A stretch of DNA of 64,000 bases from Dehalococcoidia bacterium. Its GTDB lineage: Bacteria; Chloroflexota; Dehalococcoidia; Lucifugimonadales; UBA2962. The DNA lies in assembly GCA_965250195.1 (NCBI GenBank), contig OZ252295.1, positions 1,568,856 through 1,632,855 of the forward strand, written 5' to 3'. The position numbers were made by a program, and so were the translations under genes. The notes below the pieces were generated by a model that made no database searches, had not been told where the DNA came from, and was given only the letters and a program-made list of their open reading frames with translations. This document shows, piece by piece, positions 9,974 through 17,870 of this stretch (position 1 is its first letter; the number at the start of each line of letters is the position of its first letter).

Positions 9974-11185
9974 ATGCAGAAGCCAGAAATCACCATTTAT
10001 GGGGCGCCCTGGTGCCCCTACTGCGTCCGCGCCAAGCGATTTCTCACCGAGATGCGCACGCCGTTCGATTGGGTAGACATAGACGACCATCCAGAGGCCT
10101 TGCCCTTTCTTGAAAAGGTCAACGACGGCAACCACACCATCCCCACCATCGTCTTCGGTGACGACACCATCATGGTCGCTCCGACCAACGCCGAGTTGGC
10201 GGCCAAGATCGGGCTGGAGCCGAAGGCCATGGGGGATTTTTACGACCTCATCGTCATCGGTAGCGGGCCGGCCGGACTGTCCGCCGCTATCTACGCCGCC
10301 CGCGAAGGCTTCGAAACCCTCGCCATAGACGCCGCCGGCGTCGGGGGACAGGCCGGAATCACCGACCGCATCGAAAACTACCCCGGCTTCCCCCAGGGCG
10401 TCGGCGGGGCCGAGTTGGCCGACGACATGGCCAAGCAGGCTCGTAGGTTCGGGGTGGAGATACTGCAGGCCCAGCCGGTAGACAGTCTCAGCGAGTTGCC
10501 ACTATGCAAGGTCGTAAAGACAGCATCGCAAGACGAGTATGCTGCCTCAGCCGTGCTACTGGCCACCGGTAGCAAGTACCGCAAGCTGAACGTGCCGGGC
10601 GAAGATCACCTCATCGGCAAGGGAGTCCATTTCTGCGCCACATGCGACGGTCCGTTTTACAAGGACCGCGAGCTTCTCGTGGTTGGCGGCGGCAACTCCG
10701 GCCTAGAGGAAGGTCTGTACCTGACCAAGTTCGCCAGTAAGGTCACCATCGTGGAATTCGGCACCAAGCTTCGGGCCAGCAAGGTTCTGCAAGAAGAGCT
10801 GGCCAACCACCCAGAAGTCGAGGTCAGGCTGGGAACCACCGTCAGTGAGTTTATTGGCAACGGCACCCTCAGCTCCGTGATATTGAAAAACGTCGCCTCG
10901 GGAGAGACCGAAGAGATCACCCCCGCGGGCGCTTTCATATTCATCGGCCTCACCCCCAATATCGCCTTCGCCAAGGACTTCGTAAAACTCGACCAGTGGG
11001 GATTCATCCAGACCGGCCTGACAATGGAGACCAGCGTGCCGGGCGTTTACGCCGCCGGGGACGTGCGCGCGGGCAGTACCAAGCAGGTGGCCGCTGCCGT
11101 CGGGGAGGGCGCTACGGCCGCCCTGATGATCCGGGCATTTCTGGAGAAGACCCAGGGCTCTCGTGGCTATGCTGGCGACAGTTAA
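9974..11185 (+). CDS. Glutaredoxin/mycoredoxin-like domain fused to thioredoxin reductase (TrxB/AhpF-like)
   Basis: N-terminal WCPYC...VNDGNHTIPTI; then GSGPAG, CATCDG, GGGNSG and TSVPGVYAAGD. Confidence 0.9.
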   Translation: MQKPEITIYGAPWCPYCVRAKRFLTEMRTPFDWVDIDDHPEALPFLEKVNDGNHTIPTIVFGDDTIMVAPTNAELAAKIGLEPKAMGDFYDLIVIGSGPAGLSAAIYAAREGFETLAIDAAGVGGQAGITDRIENYPGFPQGVGGAELADDMAKQARRFGVEILQAQPVDSLSELPLCKVVKTASQDEYAASAVLLATGSKYRKLNVPGEDHLIGKGVHFCATCDGPFYKDRELLVVGGGNSGLEEGLYLTKFASKVTIVEFGTKLRASKVLQEELANHPEVEVRLGTTVSEFIGNGTLSSVILKNVASGETEEITPAGAFIFIGLTPNIAFAKDFVKLDQWGFIQTGLTMETSVPGVYAAGDVRAGSTKQVAAAVGEGATAALMIRAFLEKTQGSRGYAGDS

Positions 11186-11191
11186 ACCGCG

Positions 11192-12934
11192 CTAGGCCTT
11201 GCTCGCGACCTCGCCAGTAATGCGCTCGACGAGATCGTCGAGCGGCGTCGCGCCCAGGTCCTCGCCGGAACGCAGGCGAACGGCTGCCGCTCCGGCTTCG
11301 GCCTCGCGGTCCCCGACCACCAGCATGTAGGGGACCTTCTGCTTTTGGGCGTTGCGAATCTTCGCTCCCATGCGGTCGTTGCCGTCGTCCAGCTCCGCCC
11401 TGAGCCCGGCCTCTGTGAGCCGGTCCACAATGGTTTGCCCATACTCCTGATGGCGGTCGGCGATGGGGATCACCGTCGCCTGAACCGGGGCGAGCCAGGT
11501 TGGGAAGGCGCCGCCGTAGTGCTCGATGAGAACGCCCATGAAGCGCTCCATAGAGCCCAGCAGGGCCCTGTGAATGACGTACGGCTGGTGCCGGTCGCCA
11601 TCCTCCCCCACGTATTCGAGGTCGAAACGCGCGGGCAGGTTGAAGTCGAACTGGCAGGTCGTGATCTGCCACAACCGGCCGATGGCGTCGCGGATGTGCA
11701 CGTCGATCTTGGGGCCGTAGAATGCCCCGCCGCCTTCGTCGACCGTGTACTCGTGGCCCCGGTCCTCCAAAGTCTCCCTCAATGCCTCAGTGGCGACATC
11801 CCACTGGTCGTCGCTGCCGACCGCTTTTTCAGGCTTGTTGGCGAGCATGATCTCGAAGTCCGTAAAGCCGAAACTCGTCAGCAGGTGGAACGTCAGGTCG
11901 AGAACGCCGTTCACCTCGGCCTTGACCTGGTCCTCGCGGCAGAAGATGTGCGCGTCGTCCTGCGTCAGGCCCCGCACGCGCAGGAGGCCTGCCAGCACGC
12001 CGCCGCGTTCGTAGCGGTAGACCGTGCCCAACTCGCCGGTCCGAATTGGCAGGTCGCGATAGCTTCGCAGATCGGTCTTGTAATAGGTCATGTGGAACGG
12101 GCAGTTCATCGGCTTCAGGTAGTAGTCTTGCCCGTCCATGTCCATGGCCGCGAACATGTTCTCTGCGTAGAAATCCAGGTGTCCTGAGGTTTGCCACAGG
12201 TCAGCCTTGCCGATGTGCGGGGTGTAGATGATCGAGTACCCGGCCTTGACGTGCTCGTCCCGCCAGAACTCCTCGATCAGTCCCCGAATGCGAGCACCCT
12301 TGGGATGCCATATGACCAGACCGGGCCCGACCTCGTCCGAAATGGAGAAGAGGTCCAACGCCCGGCCGAGCACGCGATGGTCGCGCTTCTTCGCTTCCTC
12401 AATCCGGTCCAGGTGTGCATCTAATTCACCCTGGCTCTCAAACGCCGTGCCGTAAATGCGCTGGAGCATCGGCCGCTTCTCGTCGCCGCGCCAGTAGGCC
12501 CCCGCCAGGCTGAGCAGCTTGTAGGCGACGATCTTGCCGGTCGAGGCCACGTGGGGGCCGCCGCACAGGTCCTCGAATCGGCCGTGCGTCCAGGTCGAAA
12601 TCGCCTCGTCTTCCGGGATGTCGTCGATGATCTCCAGCTTCAGGGGCTCATCGGCGTTCATGCGCTTCGCCTCGTCACGCGGGTACTCGGCGTAGACGAA
12701 CGGCAGGTCCTCGTCGATGACGGCCTGCATTCGCTTCTCGATATCCTCCAGCTCATCGGGAGAGAAAGTCCGGTCGGTGAGGAAGTCATAGTAGAACCCG
12801 TCGTCCGTCGGCGGGCCGATCCCCAGGCGAATGTCCGGGTGCAGTCGGGTGACGATATCGGCCATCACATGGGCGGCCGAGTGGCGCATGCGCTTTCGCA
12901 GTTCAATCAGTTCAGGGTCTGTTTTTGGGGCCAT
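11192..12934 (-). CDS. thrS: Threonine--tRNA ligase (short form lacking the N-terminal TGS domain)
   Basis: RHSAAH, DLCGGPH, KPMNCP, RYE and GAFYGPKID motifs. Confidence 0.97.
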   Translation of the reverse strand: MAPKTDPELIELRKRMRHSAAHVMADIVTRLHPDIRLGIGPPTDDGFYYDFLTDRTFSPDELEDIEKRMQAVIDEDLPFVYAEYPRDEAKRMNADEPLKLEIIDDIPEDEAISTWTHGRFEDLCGGPHVASTGKIVAYKLLSLAGAYWRGDEKRPMLQRIYGTAFESQGELDAHLDRIEEAKKRDHRVLGRALDLFSISDEVGPGLVIWHPKGARIRGLIEEFWRDEHVKAGYSIIYTPHIGKADLWQTSGHLDFYAENMFAAMDMDGQDYYLKPMNCPFHMTYYKTDLRSYRDLPIRTGELGTVYRYERGGVLAGLLRVRGLTQDDAHIFCREDQVKAEVNGVLDLTFHLLTSFGFTDFEIMLANKPEKAVGSDDQWDVATEALRETLEDRGHEYTVDEGGGAFYGPKIDVHIRDAIGRLWQITTCQFDFNLPARFDLEYVGEDGDRHQPYVIHRALLGSMERFMGVLIEHYGGAFPTWLAPVQATVIPIADRHQEYGQTIVDRLTEAGLRAELDDGNDRMGAKIRNAQKQKVPYMLVVGDREAEAGAAAVRLRSGEDLGATPLDDLVERITGEVASKA

Positions 12935-12972
12935 GTTGTCTATCTCAGTATTCGGTTTGTCGGCTGTCGGGG

Positions 12973-14559
12973 TTACGGGGTCGCCTGGCCGGCCATCACG
13001 CCGGTGCACACCTCGTCGTCCACCGCGATCTGTCCGTTGACCAGCACGTACGGAATACCGACCGGGAACTGGTTCGGGTCATCGAACGTCGCCGTGTCGA
13101 TAATCGCGTCGGGGTCAAACACCACCAGGTCCGCGAAATAACCGGCCTGGACCCGTCCCCGGTCCGTCAGACCGAACCGCCGGGCCGGGTTGTCGGTAAA
13201 TCTCTGAATCATCGTTTCGAGAGACATTACGTCTGGCATCCCCCGCCTGAAACGCCCGAGAAATCGAGGGAACGTCCCGTAGGCGCGGGGGTGTGGCAGT
13301 CTACCGACCGGGATCTGGTCGCTTCCCACCATGTAATCGGGGCGTGCCAGGAACTCCATCTGGTCCCGTGCCAGCGAGCGCGTGATCGCCACGCTGATCG
13401 GCGGAGCGCCCCGAAAGCCCACCTGCAGGTTTTCGGCGAGCAGCAGGTCGCAGACCACCTCGCCCGCCGACTTGCCCTGCAGGGCCATGATATCGACCAG
13501 GCTCATGCCTTCTAGCTTCGGCTGATTGGGCAGGTTCGTAAACACCATCAGGTCCAACGGCCTGGCGTCATAGCCGTCGATCGATTGGGCGACCTGCTTG
13601 CGTGCTTCAGGGTCGCGCAGACGTTTGAGAATAGCGTCGCTGCCGCCCTCCTGAGACACTGAGTGCAGGGCCATCAAGATGAAACTGCTGCCGATGGGGT
13701 AGGGATACAGTTCCAGCGTCGAGTCCACCTCGTCCTTGGCCGCGTCGATAGGAGCGATCTTCTCGGCCGCGGTCATCACCCCGAAATCCTCGGGCACCGT
13801 GCGGAAGTGGGAGAAGTGCACCTTTACCCCCGACAGGCGCCCTATTTGAAGGGCCTCGGCCACGCCACCGCCGCCGAAGCCACGCTCTGTATGCACATCC
13901 CGCAGGTGCGTCACGTACAGGCCACCCGCCTCATCGGCCGCCCTGCACAGCTCCACCAGTTCGTCCGTCGTGCTCCAGGCGTTGGGGAAATACGACATGC
14001 CCGTCGAGAACGCAACGGCGCCCTGCTCCACGGCTTCGCGCACCATGCCCTTGGCCTTGTCCATGTCGGCGCCGGTAAGTGGGGCGTCGGTAAAGCCGAC
14101 CGTCGAGAGGCGGATGGCGCCGTGCGGTACGCAGTAGGCCGTATTGATCGCGCACTTTTTGTGGTAATTGGCCCGGAACGCTGGGACGCTGGACATGTCT
14201 AGATCGGGGGAAGGGAGCCCGAGGATGCCCGAGAGATAACGCCGATACATATCGTAGTTCTGTGGCGACATCGGTGCATAAGAAAGGCCGTCCTGCCCCA
14301 GGATCTCCGTCGTTATGCCCTGGCGCAGGCCGGAAGCGTGCTGCGGGTCCACCAGCAGCGCGCCGTCGGTGTGGGCGTGGGCGTCGATGAACCCTGGCGA
14401 GACCACGTGTCCGGTCGCATCAATTACGCGCCGCGCCTCTGCTGTCGACAGGTCGCCGACTGCCTCGACCCGTTCGCCGGTGACACCGACGTCGGCCTTG
14501 ATGGCGGGCTCGCCGCTTCCATCCACCACCGAACCACCCTCAATCAATACGTCGAACAT
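12973..14559 (-). CDS. N-acyl-D-amino acid deacylase (D-aminoacylase family amidohydrolase)
   Basis: PGFIDAHAHTD, THLRD, VGSD and HPRAYGTFPRFLG motifs. Confidence 0.85.
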   Translation of the reverse strand: MFDVLIEGGSVVDGSGEPAIKADVGVTGERVEAVGDLSTAEARRVIDATGHVVSPGFIDAHAHTDGALLVDPQHASGLRQGITTEILGQDGLSYAPMSPQNYDMYRRYLSGILGLPSPDLDMSSVPAFRANYHKKCAINTAYCVPHGAIRLSTVGFTDAPLTGADMDKAKGMVREAVEQGAVAFSTGMSYFPNAWSTTDELVELCRAADEAGGLYVTHLRDVHTERGFGGGGVAEALQIGRLSGVKVHFSHFRTVPEDFGVMTAAEKIAPIDAAKDEVDSTLELYPYPIGSSFILMALHSVSQEGGSDAILKRLRDPEARKQVAQSIDGYDARPLDLMVFTNLPNQPKLEGMSLVDIMALQGKSAGEVVCDLLLAENLQVGFRGAPPISVAITRSLARDQMEFLARPDYMVGSDQIPVGRLPHPRAYGTFPRFLGRFRRGMPDVMSLETMIQRFTDNPARRFGLTDRGRVQAGYFADLVVFDPDAIIDTATFDDPNQFPVGIPYVLVNGQIAVDDEVCTGVMAGQATP

Positions 14560-14673
14560 TCATCTCCTCATGTTCAAAAAATAACCCGGCCTCCACCTGC
14601 ATGAGGCGATGCCGACCCCGGCCGCAAGACGAAATCGGCGTGCTGGCAAGCGATCGCAAGAGCGGGGTGAAAC

Positions 14674-14949
14674 TTAGGCGGACGCTTCGATGCGCTCCCG
14701 GATCTGCGCCCTGATCTCCTTCACCCTGGGAAGGGTGGGGAACTGGCCGCCCTCGTCCGCCTTGTCGTAGAGCTTGTCTCCGTCGGCGAAGACCTGCAGC
14801 ACGCCCCCGGTGCCGGGCGTAATCGTTATCGCCACGTCCTTGCCCCCCTGGGCGAAAATCTCGGTGGCCATCCAGGCCGCCGTGCCGTGGTGGCTTCAAG
14901 GGACGCAGTAGCGAATCTCCACGTTCACTTTCGCGATGGGTTCCGTCAT
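14674..14949 (-). CDS. Rdx/SelW-like selenoprotein (CxxU; Sec at TGA 14896-14898)
   Basis: AGGAG SD then ATG 14949; MTEPIAKVNVEIRYCVP-TGA-SHHGTAAW reads in frame into ...ITPGTGGVLQV...GQFP; hairpin after the UGA. Confidence 0.85.
14863..14881 (-). promoter_or_regulatory. Putative bacterial SECIS hairpin of the Rdx gene
   Basis: GGC-GGCC-TGGAT-GGCC-ACC; loop starts 22 nt after UGA, with G at loop position 2. Confidence 0.55.
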
Positions 14950-14997
14950 GTGATGCTCCTTGTTGTCGATCCAAATTCTGGGTCTGCAAACGACCGC

Positions 14998-16014
14998 TTA
15001 AATAGCCTGTGCGGGGTGTCGGTTGGGAATCTTGCGAGCCACGTCCGGGTTCACCAGAGACATAGGGTACATGCCCTTGAGGATGCGGGCGGCCTCCTCG
15101 CCCAGCCGCGTCCTGCCCGCCACGTTGGAGTGGTCGGACGCCCCCGCTGAGTGTGGCGTCGCGATCACGTTGTCCATAGCCAGCAGCGGGTTATCGGCGG
15201 GCGTCGGCTCCACCTCGAACACGTCCAGCGCGGCCCCGGCGATCGCTCCCGCGTTCAGTGCTCTAATCAGCGCCGCTTCGTCGTGAGTGGGTCCACGGCA
15301 GGTGTTGATGAAAAACGCCGTCGGCTTCATCGCCTTAAACAAGTCGTCGCCCGCCAGGCCCCTCGTCTCCTCGTTGAGCGGCACGTGCATCGACACATAG
15401 TCCGAGGCGGCGGCCAGGGCCTCCATTGAGTTCACCCTCGTAACCTCGTACTCCTCGGCCACCCAGGGTTCCAGGTACGGGTCGTACACCAGCACGTCCA
15501 GCCCGAATGCTTTGGCTTTGCGAGACGTCGGCCGACCTATGTTGCCGAAGCCGATCAGGCCGAGCGTCTGTCCATAGACGCCGGGCATCGGGAACAGGTG
15601 CGGGTGAGTGCTTGCATCCCATCCACCTTCACTCATGACCTTATCCAGATGGACGAGCCGTTTGGCACATGCCAGCAGGAACATGATCGCGTGGTTCGCC
15701 ACCTCGTCCGAGCAGTAGCCCGCGCAGTTGGTGAGCATCACCCCCATGTCGGTGGCGGCCTCGTCGTCGATGTGATTGAAGCCGTGGCCGAGGCTGACAA
15801 TCGCCGTGGCGCCGCTCATCGACTCGATCACCGTGCGGCTCAGCGGCACCACCTCGTCGATAACCAGGTCCGCTCCCTTGACCGCCTCAATAATCTCGAC
15901 CTCGCTGGAGACGATATGACGTTCGAATTCGTGATCCACCCCGGCCAGCTGGTCCACGGTCCAGGAGATATCGGAATCACTGGGGGATATATATGCGACT
16001 TTCAGTTTTGCCAT
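14998..16014 (-). CDS. D-isomer-specific 2-hydroxyacid dehydrogenase (CtBP/SerA-like)
   Basis: GLIGFGNIG, INTCRG, ALDVFEVEP and TPHSA motifs. Confidence 0.88.
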   Translation of the reverse strand: MAKLKVAYISPSDSDISWTVDQLAGVDHEFERHIVSSEVEIIEAVKGADLVIDEVVPLSRTVIESMSGATAIVSLGHGFNHIDDEAATDMGVMLTNCAGYCSDEVANHAIMFLLACAKRLVHLDKVMSEGGWDASTHPHLFPMPGVYGQTLGLIGFGNIGRPTSRKAKAFGLDVLVYDPYLEPWVAEEYEVTRVNSMEALAAASDYVSMHVPLNEETRGLAGDDLFKAMKPTAFFINTCRGPTHDEAALIRALNAGAIAGAALDVFEVEPTPADNPLLAMDNVIATPHSAGASDHSNVAGRTRLGEEAARILKGMYPMSLVNPDVARKIPNRHPAQAI

Positions 16015-16026
16015 GCGCTCTCTTTC

Positions 16027-17112
16027 TCAGGCGCCGATCAGGCGCGAATAGTCTTTTTGCCATCGTTCGGCGAACGCGACTTCCTTGTCTCTTTCGGCGT
16101 ACTGGGCCGAGTCATCGGCCGGGTTGTCCCTGTACCACTGGACAGTTTCGGCCACCCAATCGGCCAGGGGCGTGACGTGCAGGTCAAAGTCGCGCCTGGC
16201 TTTGGCAATCGACATGACGTAGGTAGTGGGAAGGGAAAACGGGTCATAGCTCCAGTCGTCCCAGGGCAGGCCGGAGAGCCGGTCGCAGGCATCGGCCGGT
16301 GCGGAGGTCGTATTCAACTCAACCCCACACGCCTCGGCCAGGACCGTGAGGTAGTGCGCCAGCGTCGGAATCTCGCCCTGGCAGATGTTGTAAACGTTGC
16401 CAGCGGTGTTGGGCGAATCCATCGCGTCGATGAACGCCCTGGCCACGTCGTCCCGGAACCCTAGCCGGAAGGCGTTCGCGCCCCCGTCCCGCAGCACGAT
16501 GGGCCGACCGTCCTGCATCCGCTGCTGGTACCACCAAAAGCGCAGGCTCGGGTCCTCCGGCCCCATCGTCGCAGGCACCCGCATCGCGACCCAGGGGAAA
16601 TCCCCGGATTCCATCAGGAACCGTTCTATCTGGCGCTTTCCCTGGGCGTATTCGTGCTCGCTGTCGTCGTAGGAGTACGGCACCGTGGCCGAGTCCACGG
16701 AGCGTTCCGTCATAGGCGCCTCGGCGTTGAGATCGACGAACTGGTCGGTGTGGTCCATCGGTCCGGTTCCGGTCAGCCGACGGGTGTGAGCGTGGCCGGG
16801 GCCCCCATAAATGGAGACGGTAGAGGCGACGAGATATTTACCGGTCTTGCCTCTTAACGTTTTGACCACCGACGCGACGTCCTCAGTGCGGTAGGCGAGA
16901 TTGTCGATCACCGCGTCGAAGCTTTTGCCCGAGAGTTTCGCATCGAAATCATCGCAATCGGTACGGTCTCCAACAATGTGCTCGCAGTCATCCCAGAAGT
17001 CCGGGCGAGTGTTGCCGCGGGAGTAGATCGTCACCTCGTCGCCGCGTGCGAGCAGGTCCCTGACAATCTTCTTGCCGAAATAGAGGGTGCCGCCGATCAG
17101 TAGGACTTTCAT
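16027..17112 (-). CDS. NAD-dependent epimerase/dehydratase (extended SDR)
   Basis: N-terminal IGGTLYFG and YAQGK (YxxxK) motifs. Confidence 0.8.
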   Translation of the reverse strand: MKVLLIGGTLYFGKKIVRDLLARGDEVTIYSRGNTRPDFWDDCEHIVGDRTDCDDFDAKLSGKSFDAVIDNLAYRTEDVASVVKTLRGKTGKYLVASTVSIYGGPGHAHTRRLTGTGPMDHTDQFVDLNAEAPMTERSVDSATVPYSYDDSEHEYAQGKRQIERFLMESGDFPWVAMRVPATMGPEDPSLRFWWYQQRMQDGRPIVLRDGGANAFRLGFRDDVARAFIDAMDSPNTAGNVYNICQGEIPTLAHYLTVLAEACGVELNTTSAPADACDRLSGLPWDDWSYDPFSLPTTYVMSIAKARRDFDLHVTPLADWVAETVQWYRDNPADDSAQYAERDKEVAFAERWQKDYSRLIGA

Positions 17113-17185
17113 GTGCATCCGTCTCCCAAAATGGGCTCTGAATGTAGGCTCTGAAAAAGGGCCGCCCAGAGGGCGGTCGAGCGGC

Positions 17186-17219
17186 ATTATAAGGGCGGCG
17201 TATGGTCCGGTGCTAAGAT
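17186..17219. promoter_or_regulatory. Divergent -10 boxes for the epimerase and DsbA-fold genes
   Basis: TATAAT on minus (17186-17191) and extended TGCTAAGAT on plus (17211-17219). Confidence 0.5.
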
Positions 17220-17252: not shown

Positions 17253-17870
17253 GTGGTGAAGGTACAGATTTTCTACGACTACATATGACCCTACGTACAC
17301 AATGCAGCCGTGTGGCTGCACAAGGCCGCCGCCGATGGGGTTGAGTTAGACGTGACCTGGCGGGCGTTCGTGCTCGACGAGGTGAACCGCAAAGAGGGCG
17401 ATACCCCCACCTGGGAAAAATCCGAGGGCGAGCGAGGGCGTTCGCTACTGTCCCTGGTGGCGGGCAAGGCCGTGCTGCGGCAGGCCCCGGAACTGTTCGA
17501 AACCTTCCACCGGGCCATACTGGCGGCGCGTCACGATGGCGCCCGCATCCGGCTCGATTTACCCGATCCTCTACTTGAAATCAGTTCGCAAGTCGGCCTA
17601 GACACAGACCGGCTCCAACGAGACATGGACGATCCAGAATTACTGGCGGCCGTGGCTGTGGATCATACCGAGGCCTCCCAGACCCACGGCGTGTTCGGTA
17701 CGCCCACCTTCGTGTTCGAGAACGGCCAGGCCGTGTTCGTAAAAACCTTCATCCCTCCGGACGACCAGGCGGCCGACGCCCTGACCAACTTCGTGGGCCT
17801 CATGGCGGAGCGGAGCTACATCGGCGAGGTAAAGCGCCCGCAGCCGCCCTGGCCCAAGGGCGCCGTCTAG
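17253..17870 (+). CDS. DsbA-fold (Rv2466c/mycoredoxin-2-like) selenoprotein (Sec at TGA 17286-17288)
   Basis: GGGGGTGAG SD then GTG; VKVQIFYDYI-TGA-PYVHNAAVW is in frame with the track ORF at 17310; GVFGTPT cis-Pro loop; perfect hairpin after the UGA. Confidence 0.85.
17303..17320 (+). promoter_or_regulatory. Putative bacterial SECIS hairpin of the DsbA-fold gene
   Basis: TGCAGCC-GTGT-GGCTGCA, a 7-bp perfect stem with a G-initiated loop starting 22 nt after UGA. Confidence 0.7.

Follow-up and report, generated by a model that had tools for sequence, protein, structure and literature searches.

A gene for a small SelW-like protein of the Rdx family lies on the minus strand at 14674..14949 of the window, the 64,000 nt stretch of DNA analysed here (positions 1,568,856–1,632,855 of the forward strand of contig OZ252295.1, assembly GCA_965250195.1, from an uncultured Dehalococcoidia bacterium). 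The in-frame UGA at codon 18 is very likely read as selenocysteine. We consider, with a probability of about 0.85, that the product is a stand-alone cytoplasmic thiol/selenol oxidoreductase and that its gene neighbours are incidental. The family is a known one, to which this gene adds one more member, and the result is a correction of annotation rather than a discovery.

The reading frame opens with the ATG at 14949, passes through TGA at 14898–14896 (feature 14896..14898, minus strand; the predicted selenocysteine codon of residue 18) and closes with TAA at 14676–14674. The read-through product of 91 residues runs MTEPIAKVNVEIRYCVP-U-SHH...PGTGGVLQV...FP... and contains the motif C15-V-P-U18. 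The first-pass annotation had proposed this frame, and its coordinates, motifs (YCVP-UGA-SHH) and length all proved correct. Two further points made there hold as well: a standard open-reading-frame caller yields just the piece 14674–14871, the last 65 residues, and a strong Shine–Dalgarno site, AAGGAG (14956..14961, minus strand), stands 6 nt upstream of the ATG. A GGAG, AGGA or GAGG site precedes the start codon in 30 of 30 loci searched with our own script, and the start codons of these loci sit 15–23 codons before the UGA.

With cysteine substituted for selenocysteine in the scoring, the read-through protein reaches 55.4 bits against Pfam PF10262 (Rdx; cut-off 22.6), covers positions 1–73 of the 74 in the profile and is the sole Rdx match in its genome. 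The 65-residue fragment alone scores 25.3 bits over profile positions 20–73. Such a rise on reading through the UGA indicates that the extension of the frame is not due to chance, and the Rdx identity first proposed from the letters of the sequence is borne out by the profile. The NCBIfam matches are two SelT/SelW/SelH models only, each under its cut-off: TIGR02174 (CXXU_selWTH), at 32.3 bits against 34.2 and hence 1.9 bits short with C for U, and NF041051, at 39.1 bits against 88. Against TIGR02174 the 29 aligned members of the family all give E ≤ 0.001 (best 8.5e-12). Judged by these scores, the gene is to be filed under the Pfam Rdx family and not under the TIGR02174 model. The C-terminal stretch of the Rdx family has been given as tGxFEI/V (PMC10650576). 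The window protein has TGGVLQV at this position; across the 29 rows the second G is invariant, F is replaced by L or M and E is mostly Q, and distant Rdx paralogs carry GRLEV.

A profile of the 29 homologs retrieved eight solved sequences, namely six bacterial SelW-like proteins, MIEN1 and mouse SelW. The AlphaFold model of the protein (pLDDT 88.3) has the order strand–helix–strand–strand–strand–helix: a strand at 8–14, the CxxU loop, a helix at 21–38, three strands and a C-terminal helix. The CxxU motif, invariant across the 29 aligned rows, directly follows strand 8–14 in the model, which places C15 and U18 in the loop that joins strand 1 to helix 1. The 65-residue fragment has neither strand 1 nor the redox motif. 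In a Foldseek search the model matched 2fa8, 2oka, 2ojl, 2obk, 2p0g and 3dex with TM scores of 0.70–0.78 and r.m.s.d. values of 1.4–3.0 Å; the top 11 rows, in the same range of TM scores, are all bacterial SelW-related or Rdx-profile structures. Mouse SelW (2npb) gave a TM score of 0.79 and classical thioredoxins gave values near 0.5. The predicted structure has the compact thioredoxin-like fold expected of an Rdx protein.

The genome encodes the apparatus for selenocysteine insertion, the lack of which the first-pass annotation had named as grounds for abandoning its proposal. The matches to selA (527.7 bits), selB (346.8 bits) and selD (368.9 bits) are all over their cut-offs, the selD gene carries an in-frame TGA of its own and a tRNA-SeC(tca) of 99 nt is the only tRNA in the genome with a TCA anticodon; a normal tRNA-Trp(cca) is also present. 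These tRNAs bear directly on a reading in which the UGA is decoded as tryptophan (code 4 or similar) to give YCVPW. Several public entries do carry W at the site, but they likely stem from gene callers choosing another code. Besides the tRNA complement, translation table 11 yields normal genes in the window and the natural alternative residue at the site is cysteine; we give the tryptophan reading next to no credence.

The protein is matched in 49 of 61 related genomes, and the codon site is TGA in all of the 30 best loci from this set, its own genome counted. Scanning the GTDB genomes turned up 443 relatives, and the best 80 of these were used; all 80 titles name Dehalococcoidia, SAR202 or Chloroflexota/Chloroflexi. 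TGA occupies the site in 78 of these 80 loci and TGC in the other two, at 56–92% identity, with nine loci probably overlapping the 61-genome set and kin not independent of each other. The coding sequence is conserved on both sides of the TGA in the 78. Among 12 more distant matches, eight have CxxU, three have CxxC (TGT/TGC) and one was unusable. The interchange of TGA and TGC codons that had been proposed as a check is thus seen at both distances.

It is against this pattern that a true stop has to be weighed. Were the gene a pseudogene or the UGA an assembly error, the 65-residue fragment or nothing at all would be made, and the public databases would appear to agree: most entries are the post-UGA fragment, and 96 of 120 listed homologs are without [YFW]CxxC/S, at least 71 of those 96 beginning MAxE. 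A stop is hard to reconcile with a TGA maintained in 78 of 80 loci between conserved coding stretches and replaced by cysteine in the remaining two. The ribosome-binding site, moreover, precedes the upstream ATG, and the fragment would lack the first strand and the active site. We regard a true stop as extremely improbable, and it is very improbable that the codon is anything other than selenocysteine.

Cysteine versions of the protein are not confined to genomes that lack the machinery. Across the 61 genomes, 51 have a selA match. Of the five cysteine versions checked, two are in genomes without such a match (G050, 97% complete, and G062, completeness not given) and three are in genomes with selA (G053, G058 and G061), so that cysteine does not simply follow loss of the machinery. 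The version in G061 (L104) has TGC and retains a full SECIS-like hairpin, and is possibly a recent change from selenocysteine to cysteine. Some homologs have G-V-P-C and others C-V-P-S (P0033, P0037, P0038 and P0065), so that in cysteine-type relatives the first as well as the second residue of the CxxU pair can be lost. In a tree of 79 of the 80 GTDB loci and the window gene (L162, which ends at a contig edge, was dropped), the window gene and nine near relatives form one group (SH-aLRT 95), and the two cysteine genes are separate; this was a quick search with 6 of 69 branches strong, and gain or loss is not datable from it.

A predicted bacterial SECIS element, CGG-C-GGCC-UGGAU-GGCC-A-CCG, lies at 14862..14882 (minus strand) and draws on both folding and covariation. 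It consists of a 4 bp core (14866–14878) plus 3 bp, with a 5 nt loop, UGGAU, that has G at its second position and starts 21 nt past the UGA; the 33 nt segment has a folding energy of −13.6 kcal/mol. The bacterial SECIS criteria listed in PMC13188914 are a loop of 3–9 nt on a stem of 4–16 bp, G in the first two loop positions, a distance of 16–37 nt from the UGA and a minimum free energy of ≤ −7.5 kcal/mol, and the hairpin agrees with all four. The core is whole in 79 of the 80 GTDB loci, the single failure being a TGC gene (L145). Over 29 distinct rows, 11 cells showed changes on both sides of a pair; shuffles gave 2.4, and none of the 500 reached the observed count. The hairpin also outscored all six slid controls. 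Counts of this kind are inflated by relatedness, and the structure was derived from the same sequences. More telling than the raw count is the pair 21–33, in which two wobble positions are coupled and GC, AU, CG and GU all occur. Taken alone, the 60 nt hairpin region has only a modest stability (z −1.97), which 8 of 200 shuffles matched, and it overlaps conserved codons (W-M) that force part of the structure.

If decoding follows the established bacterial scheme, SelB would bind the GGCC-UGGAU-GGCC hairpin within the coding region and bring Sec-tRNA to codon 18. Decoding of this kind implies that in the absence of selenium translation would halt after 17 residues. The family, the motif and the fold suggest that C15 and U18 cycle between a selenenylsulfide and a reduced selenol/thiol pair. 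By analogy with the family, the protein may act on proteins of the cytoplasm, reducing their oxidized cysteines or mixed disulfides, and could itself be re-reduced by a small thiol or by a system of the thioredoxin-reductase type. No hydrophobic leader was seen in the protein on inspection by eye. A redox role has been proposed for prokaryotic SelW-like proteins, the function of which is described as unclear (PMC1088965, PMC2398784; for bacterial proteins also PMC13188914), and our literature search found no paper that deals with what a bacterial Rdx protein does or with the present gene neighbourhood.

A glutaredoxin/mycoredoxin-like domain fused to thioredoxin reductase is encoded on the plus strand at 9974–11185, between thrS and infC. 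This fusion was considered as the reductant of the Rdx protein and rejected, being present in just two of eight same-genus regions (≤12.7 kb) and in none of 20 others.

The neighbours of the gene are those that had been named at the outset. Upstream, a D-isomer-specific 2-hydroxyacid dehydrogenase-family protein of 338 residues, of putative substrate class, is encoded at 14998..16014 (minus strand), its stop codon 48 nt before the Rdx ATG. Downstream, the gene for a 528-residue D-aminoacylase-family amidohydrolase (12973..14559, minus strand) begins 114 nt past the Rdx stop; this is a family-level match, with E 2e-74 against solved D-aminoacylases. A gene of the NAD-dependent epimerase/dehydratase family (16027..17187, minus strand) heads the co-directional run, in which the successive gaps are 12, 48 and 114 nt, and the run continues into the housekeeping gene thrS (11192–13009, minus strand). 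Between 12900 and 17400 we found no sigma-70-like promoter (1.1 expected) and two terminator-like sites (2.6 expected), neither of them beside the Rdx gene, a scan that is uninformative.

An arrangement of this sort invites the idea that the selenoprotein serves the flanking catabolic enzymes as a dedicated redox partner; it might, for instance, hold the 2-hydroxyacid dehydrogenase in its reduced state within a D-amino-acid or hydroxyacid pathway. The genes share a strand, the gap to the dehydrogenase is 48 nt, a scan found no terminator-like site in 12973–17150, and the order epimerase–dehydrogenase–Rdx–aminoacylase recurs in nine of nine same-genus genomes, with a gap after the Rdx gene of about 40–326 nt. 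The 80 GTDB loci, taken with 3 kb flanks and about ten of them cut by contig ends, have the dehydrogenase within 600 nt upstream in 23 cases, above random shuffling. Fourteen of these lie outside the clade of the window gene, 12 of them arranged gltD–dehydrogenase–Rdx. Shared ancestry accounts for this recurrence, and the 14 loci are the only finding that leaves room for a functional link.

Other loci tell against such a partnership. The dehydrogenase is not adjacent in 57 of the 80 and the aminoacylase is not adjacent in 70 (about ten loci end at contig edges); the latter is found within 400 nt downstream in ten loci. Both enzymes adjoin the Rdx gene in nine, and these are the nine nearest relatives, all from the clade of the window gene. 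In the sister genus, the four genomes that have both enzymes on one contig hold them 97–101 nt apart with no Rdx gene between. The block is intact there (glyA–rnc–DsbA-like/dehydrogenase–aminoacylase–thrS), and the genomes have no close Rdx ortholog, only a distant paralog elsewhere. Another genome (G016) likewise keeps the enzyme block without the gene and without a close ortholog. Twelve genomes outside the family carry a close Rdx match (E<1e-20) as well as the dehydrogenase (E<1e-85), and the two genes adjoin in three of them. In 20 regions of 8–13 kb from other families, the dehydrogenase, the aminoacylase and the DsbA-like gene described below were each found three times. Direct Rdx neighbours outside the family, among 42 open reading frames scanned, include CoA-transferase III, DUF503, helicase, gltD, fmt, rimM, a TauE transporter and thymidylate kinase.

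The claim that the gene sits inside a catabolic operon is therefore not upheld by the comparison of neighbourhoods: the order is limited to one genus, joint adjacency occurs in nine of 80 loci, the enzyme pair stands alone in the sister genus and the run enters thrS. The neighbourhood is best read as lineage-level gene order, with possible co-transcription and no shared pathway, and a dedicated partnership is improbable. In G015 and at locus L145 the Rdx gene is present upstream of the region that holds the aminoacylase, which favours its loss from the sister genus rather than a gain in the genus of the window. In four further genomes (G023, G034, G035 and G049) the Rdx, dehydrogenase, aminoacylase and DsbA-like genes all fall within 10–50 kb, a scattered clustering that fits an old chromosome region, shuffled and thinned. 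Since its neighbours are not conserved with the gene, the locus does not reveal what bacterial SelW-like proteins act on.

A different neighbour recurs elsewhere. In seven of the 20 other-family regions (L047, L048, L050, L052, L053, L058 and L062) a tandem CoA-transferase family III gene encoding about 790 residues comes after the Rdx gene on its strand. A 950-residue PMT/PA14 membrane protein is often encoded behind the transferase, and 17 of the 80 GTDB loci have a homolog. As a recurring neighbour the transferase gene is as common as the aminoacylase.

The first-pass annotation had also pointed to a second selenoprotein gene about 2.3 kb away. The gene is real: it encodes a predicted DsbA-like form 2 selenoprotein of 204 residues (17256..17870, plus strand, divergent from the Rdx run) with the motif D-Y-I-U-P, of DxxUP type. 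It lies 2.3 kb from the Rdx start and has its TGA at 17286–17288, and a hairpin of its own with a GUGU loop follows 21 nt downstream of the TGA. The product matches PF01323 with 57.6 bits across the UGA and no NCBIfam family at E 1e-6, and the open-reading-frame caller had cut the gene so that it was listed from 17310. Of the 61 related genomes, 45 match the gene, 41 of these with one in-frame TGA; cysteine replaces it in G028. In the regional comparison it adjoins rnc in all ten loci where it is present.

What did not stand was the significance attached to the closeness of the two genes, which is within chance. A genome-wide scan for in-frame UGA codons, a heuristic of our own, gave 217 candidates, mostly false, of which 20 were checked by profile. 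In 14 of these the UGA lies within a match to a profile of redox type or to a DUF3179, PrdB-like, ArsM-like or rhodanese profile, as is probably the case in a fifteenth. Adding SelD, Rdx and the DsbA-like protein brings the genome to 17–18 or more selenoprotein genes, a floor because only 20 of the 217 candidates were checked. With such a number, some pair within 2.4 kb is expected by chance with a probability of 0.2–0.3 (the simulated values are 0.20 with 16 genes and 0.29 with 20). The genome has two further candidate pairs, 3.6 and 3.8 kb apart.

These figures weigh on the proposal that the Rdx protein and the divergent DsbA-like protein form a two-selenoprotein redox relay and that their closeness has been selected. 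For one given gene, the simulated probability of a selenoprotein neighbour within 2.4 kb is about 0.03, the 2.3 kb spacing is kept in the genus, and among 20 genomes outside the family that have both genes (Rdx E<2e-19) three place them within 5 kb (G015, G021 and G028, in the last 0.2 kb apart) and three more within 14–22 kb. However, the same 20 include five in which a single contig carries the genes over 600 kb apart and nine in which they are on different contigs. The sister genus, furthermore, retains the DsbA-like gene without a close Rdx gene, and the DsbA-like protein of G028 has cysteine. We judge a relay to be decidedly improbable and retain the stand-alone oxidoreductase as the preferred reading. 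For the SAR202/Dehalococcoidia clade with YCVPU as a whole, it is unlikely that these proteins are partners of a co-transcribed dehydrogenase or work in relay with the DxxUP DsbA-like protein; if they did, this would provide the first named substrate of a bacterial SelW-like protein and would tie selenium to the catabolism of dissolved organic matter.

Several other candidates from the scan deserve mention. Three DUF3179 genes (L205, L206 and L207) and three PrdB/GrdB-like genes (L200, L201 and L202) have an in-frame TGA inside the matched domain, and Prx-like, deiodinase-like, ArsC-like, ArsM-like and rhodanese candidates were also seen. A 106-residue frame (L211, G000:C1:1764254-1764574) has a strong coding signal on both sides of its TGA, the motif P-P-I-G-U-G-G and a good hairpin with a GGUC loop 20 nt downstream. 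It has no Pfam or NCBIfam match and, on its sequence features, is a candidate selenoprotein, which we presume may be HesB-like. A nitrile hydratase alpha-subunit gene (L216, G000:C1:2180329-2180964; TIGR01323, 237 bits) has an in-frame TGA at what we take to be a tryptophan position of the family (ARAW). This TGA is likely a nonsense change or an assembly error rather than a selenocysteine codon, and among the 20 candidates checked no other fell at a conserved tryptophan site.

The public databases already hold relatives labelled 'Rdx family protein [SAR202 cluster bacterium]' and 'predicted Rdx family selenoprotein'. Among the matches listed for this clade, the majority are a fragment without the motif or carry the wrong residue, tryptophan, at the site, which leaves the redox site invisible in the databases. 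Our search of the literature on selenocysteine in SAR202 found no paper on the window gene; BSepDB may already list orthologs. SelW-like selenoproteins occur in sequenced bacteria (PMC1794560) and are reported as the most abundant selenoprotein family both in the Sargasso Sea (48 genes; PMC1088965) and in the GOS samples (427 genes in 40 samples; PMC2398784). Neighbouring Prx and SelW selenoprotein genes have been reported before (PMC2398784), and BSepDB lists two Dehalococcoidia, with 46 and 49 genes, among the ten bacteria richest in selenoproteins (PMC13326102, Table 2). With the present gene this most abundant family of marine selenoproteins gains one more representative, in a selenoprotein-rich class. 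Its membership of the commonest known marine family and the likely local nature of its gene order are what make this an annotation fix.

Comparison with known systems places both genes among established types. The D-Y-I-U-P-Y-V stretch of the second gene fits the DsbA-like form 2 motif DxxUP (PMC13188914) and the DsbA 3 motif UxxV (PMC2398784), and we found no difference from the tabulated DxxUP and UxxV families. Mammalian SELENOW (2npb) and MIEN1/Rdx12 (2ljk) share the thioredoxin-like Rdx fold with the predicted model, and SelW has Cys-x-x-Sec (PMC10650576). SELENOW, however, is 13% identical to the window protein, its SECIS element is in the 3' UTR and not in the coding region as here, and its known partner, 14-3-3, is eukaryotic (PMC10650576). 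The solved bacterial SelW-related proteins compared, from Agrobacterium (Atu0228, 2fa8), Pseudomonas (2oka and 2obk), Vibrio (2p0g), Bordetella (2ojl) and Streptomyces (SAV_2001, 3dex), have the same fold as that predicted here, and the two alignments displayed share YCxxC, AxW and P-G/S-TGG. The displayed proteins have CxxC (CTQC) where the window protein has CxxU, at 24–34% identity. Closest in kind are the SelW-like CxxU proteins of the Sargasso Sea and GOS sets (PMC1088965, PMC2398784), which the window protein resembles in size, in the CxxU motif, in the in-frame UGA with a SECIS element downstream and in its profile match. Unlike the proteins described there, the Dehalococcoidia/SAR202 clade to which it belongs has YCVPU as a fixed motif and L instead of F in tGxFEI/V, and the window protein scores 1.9 bits under the TIGR02174 cut-off.
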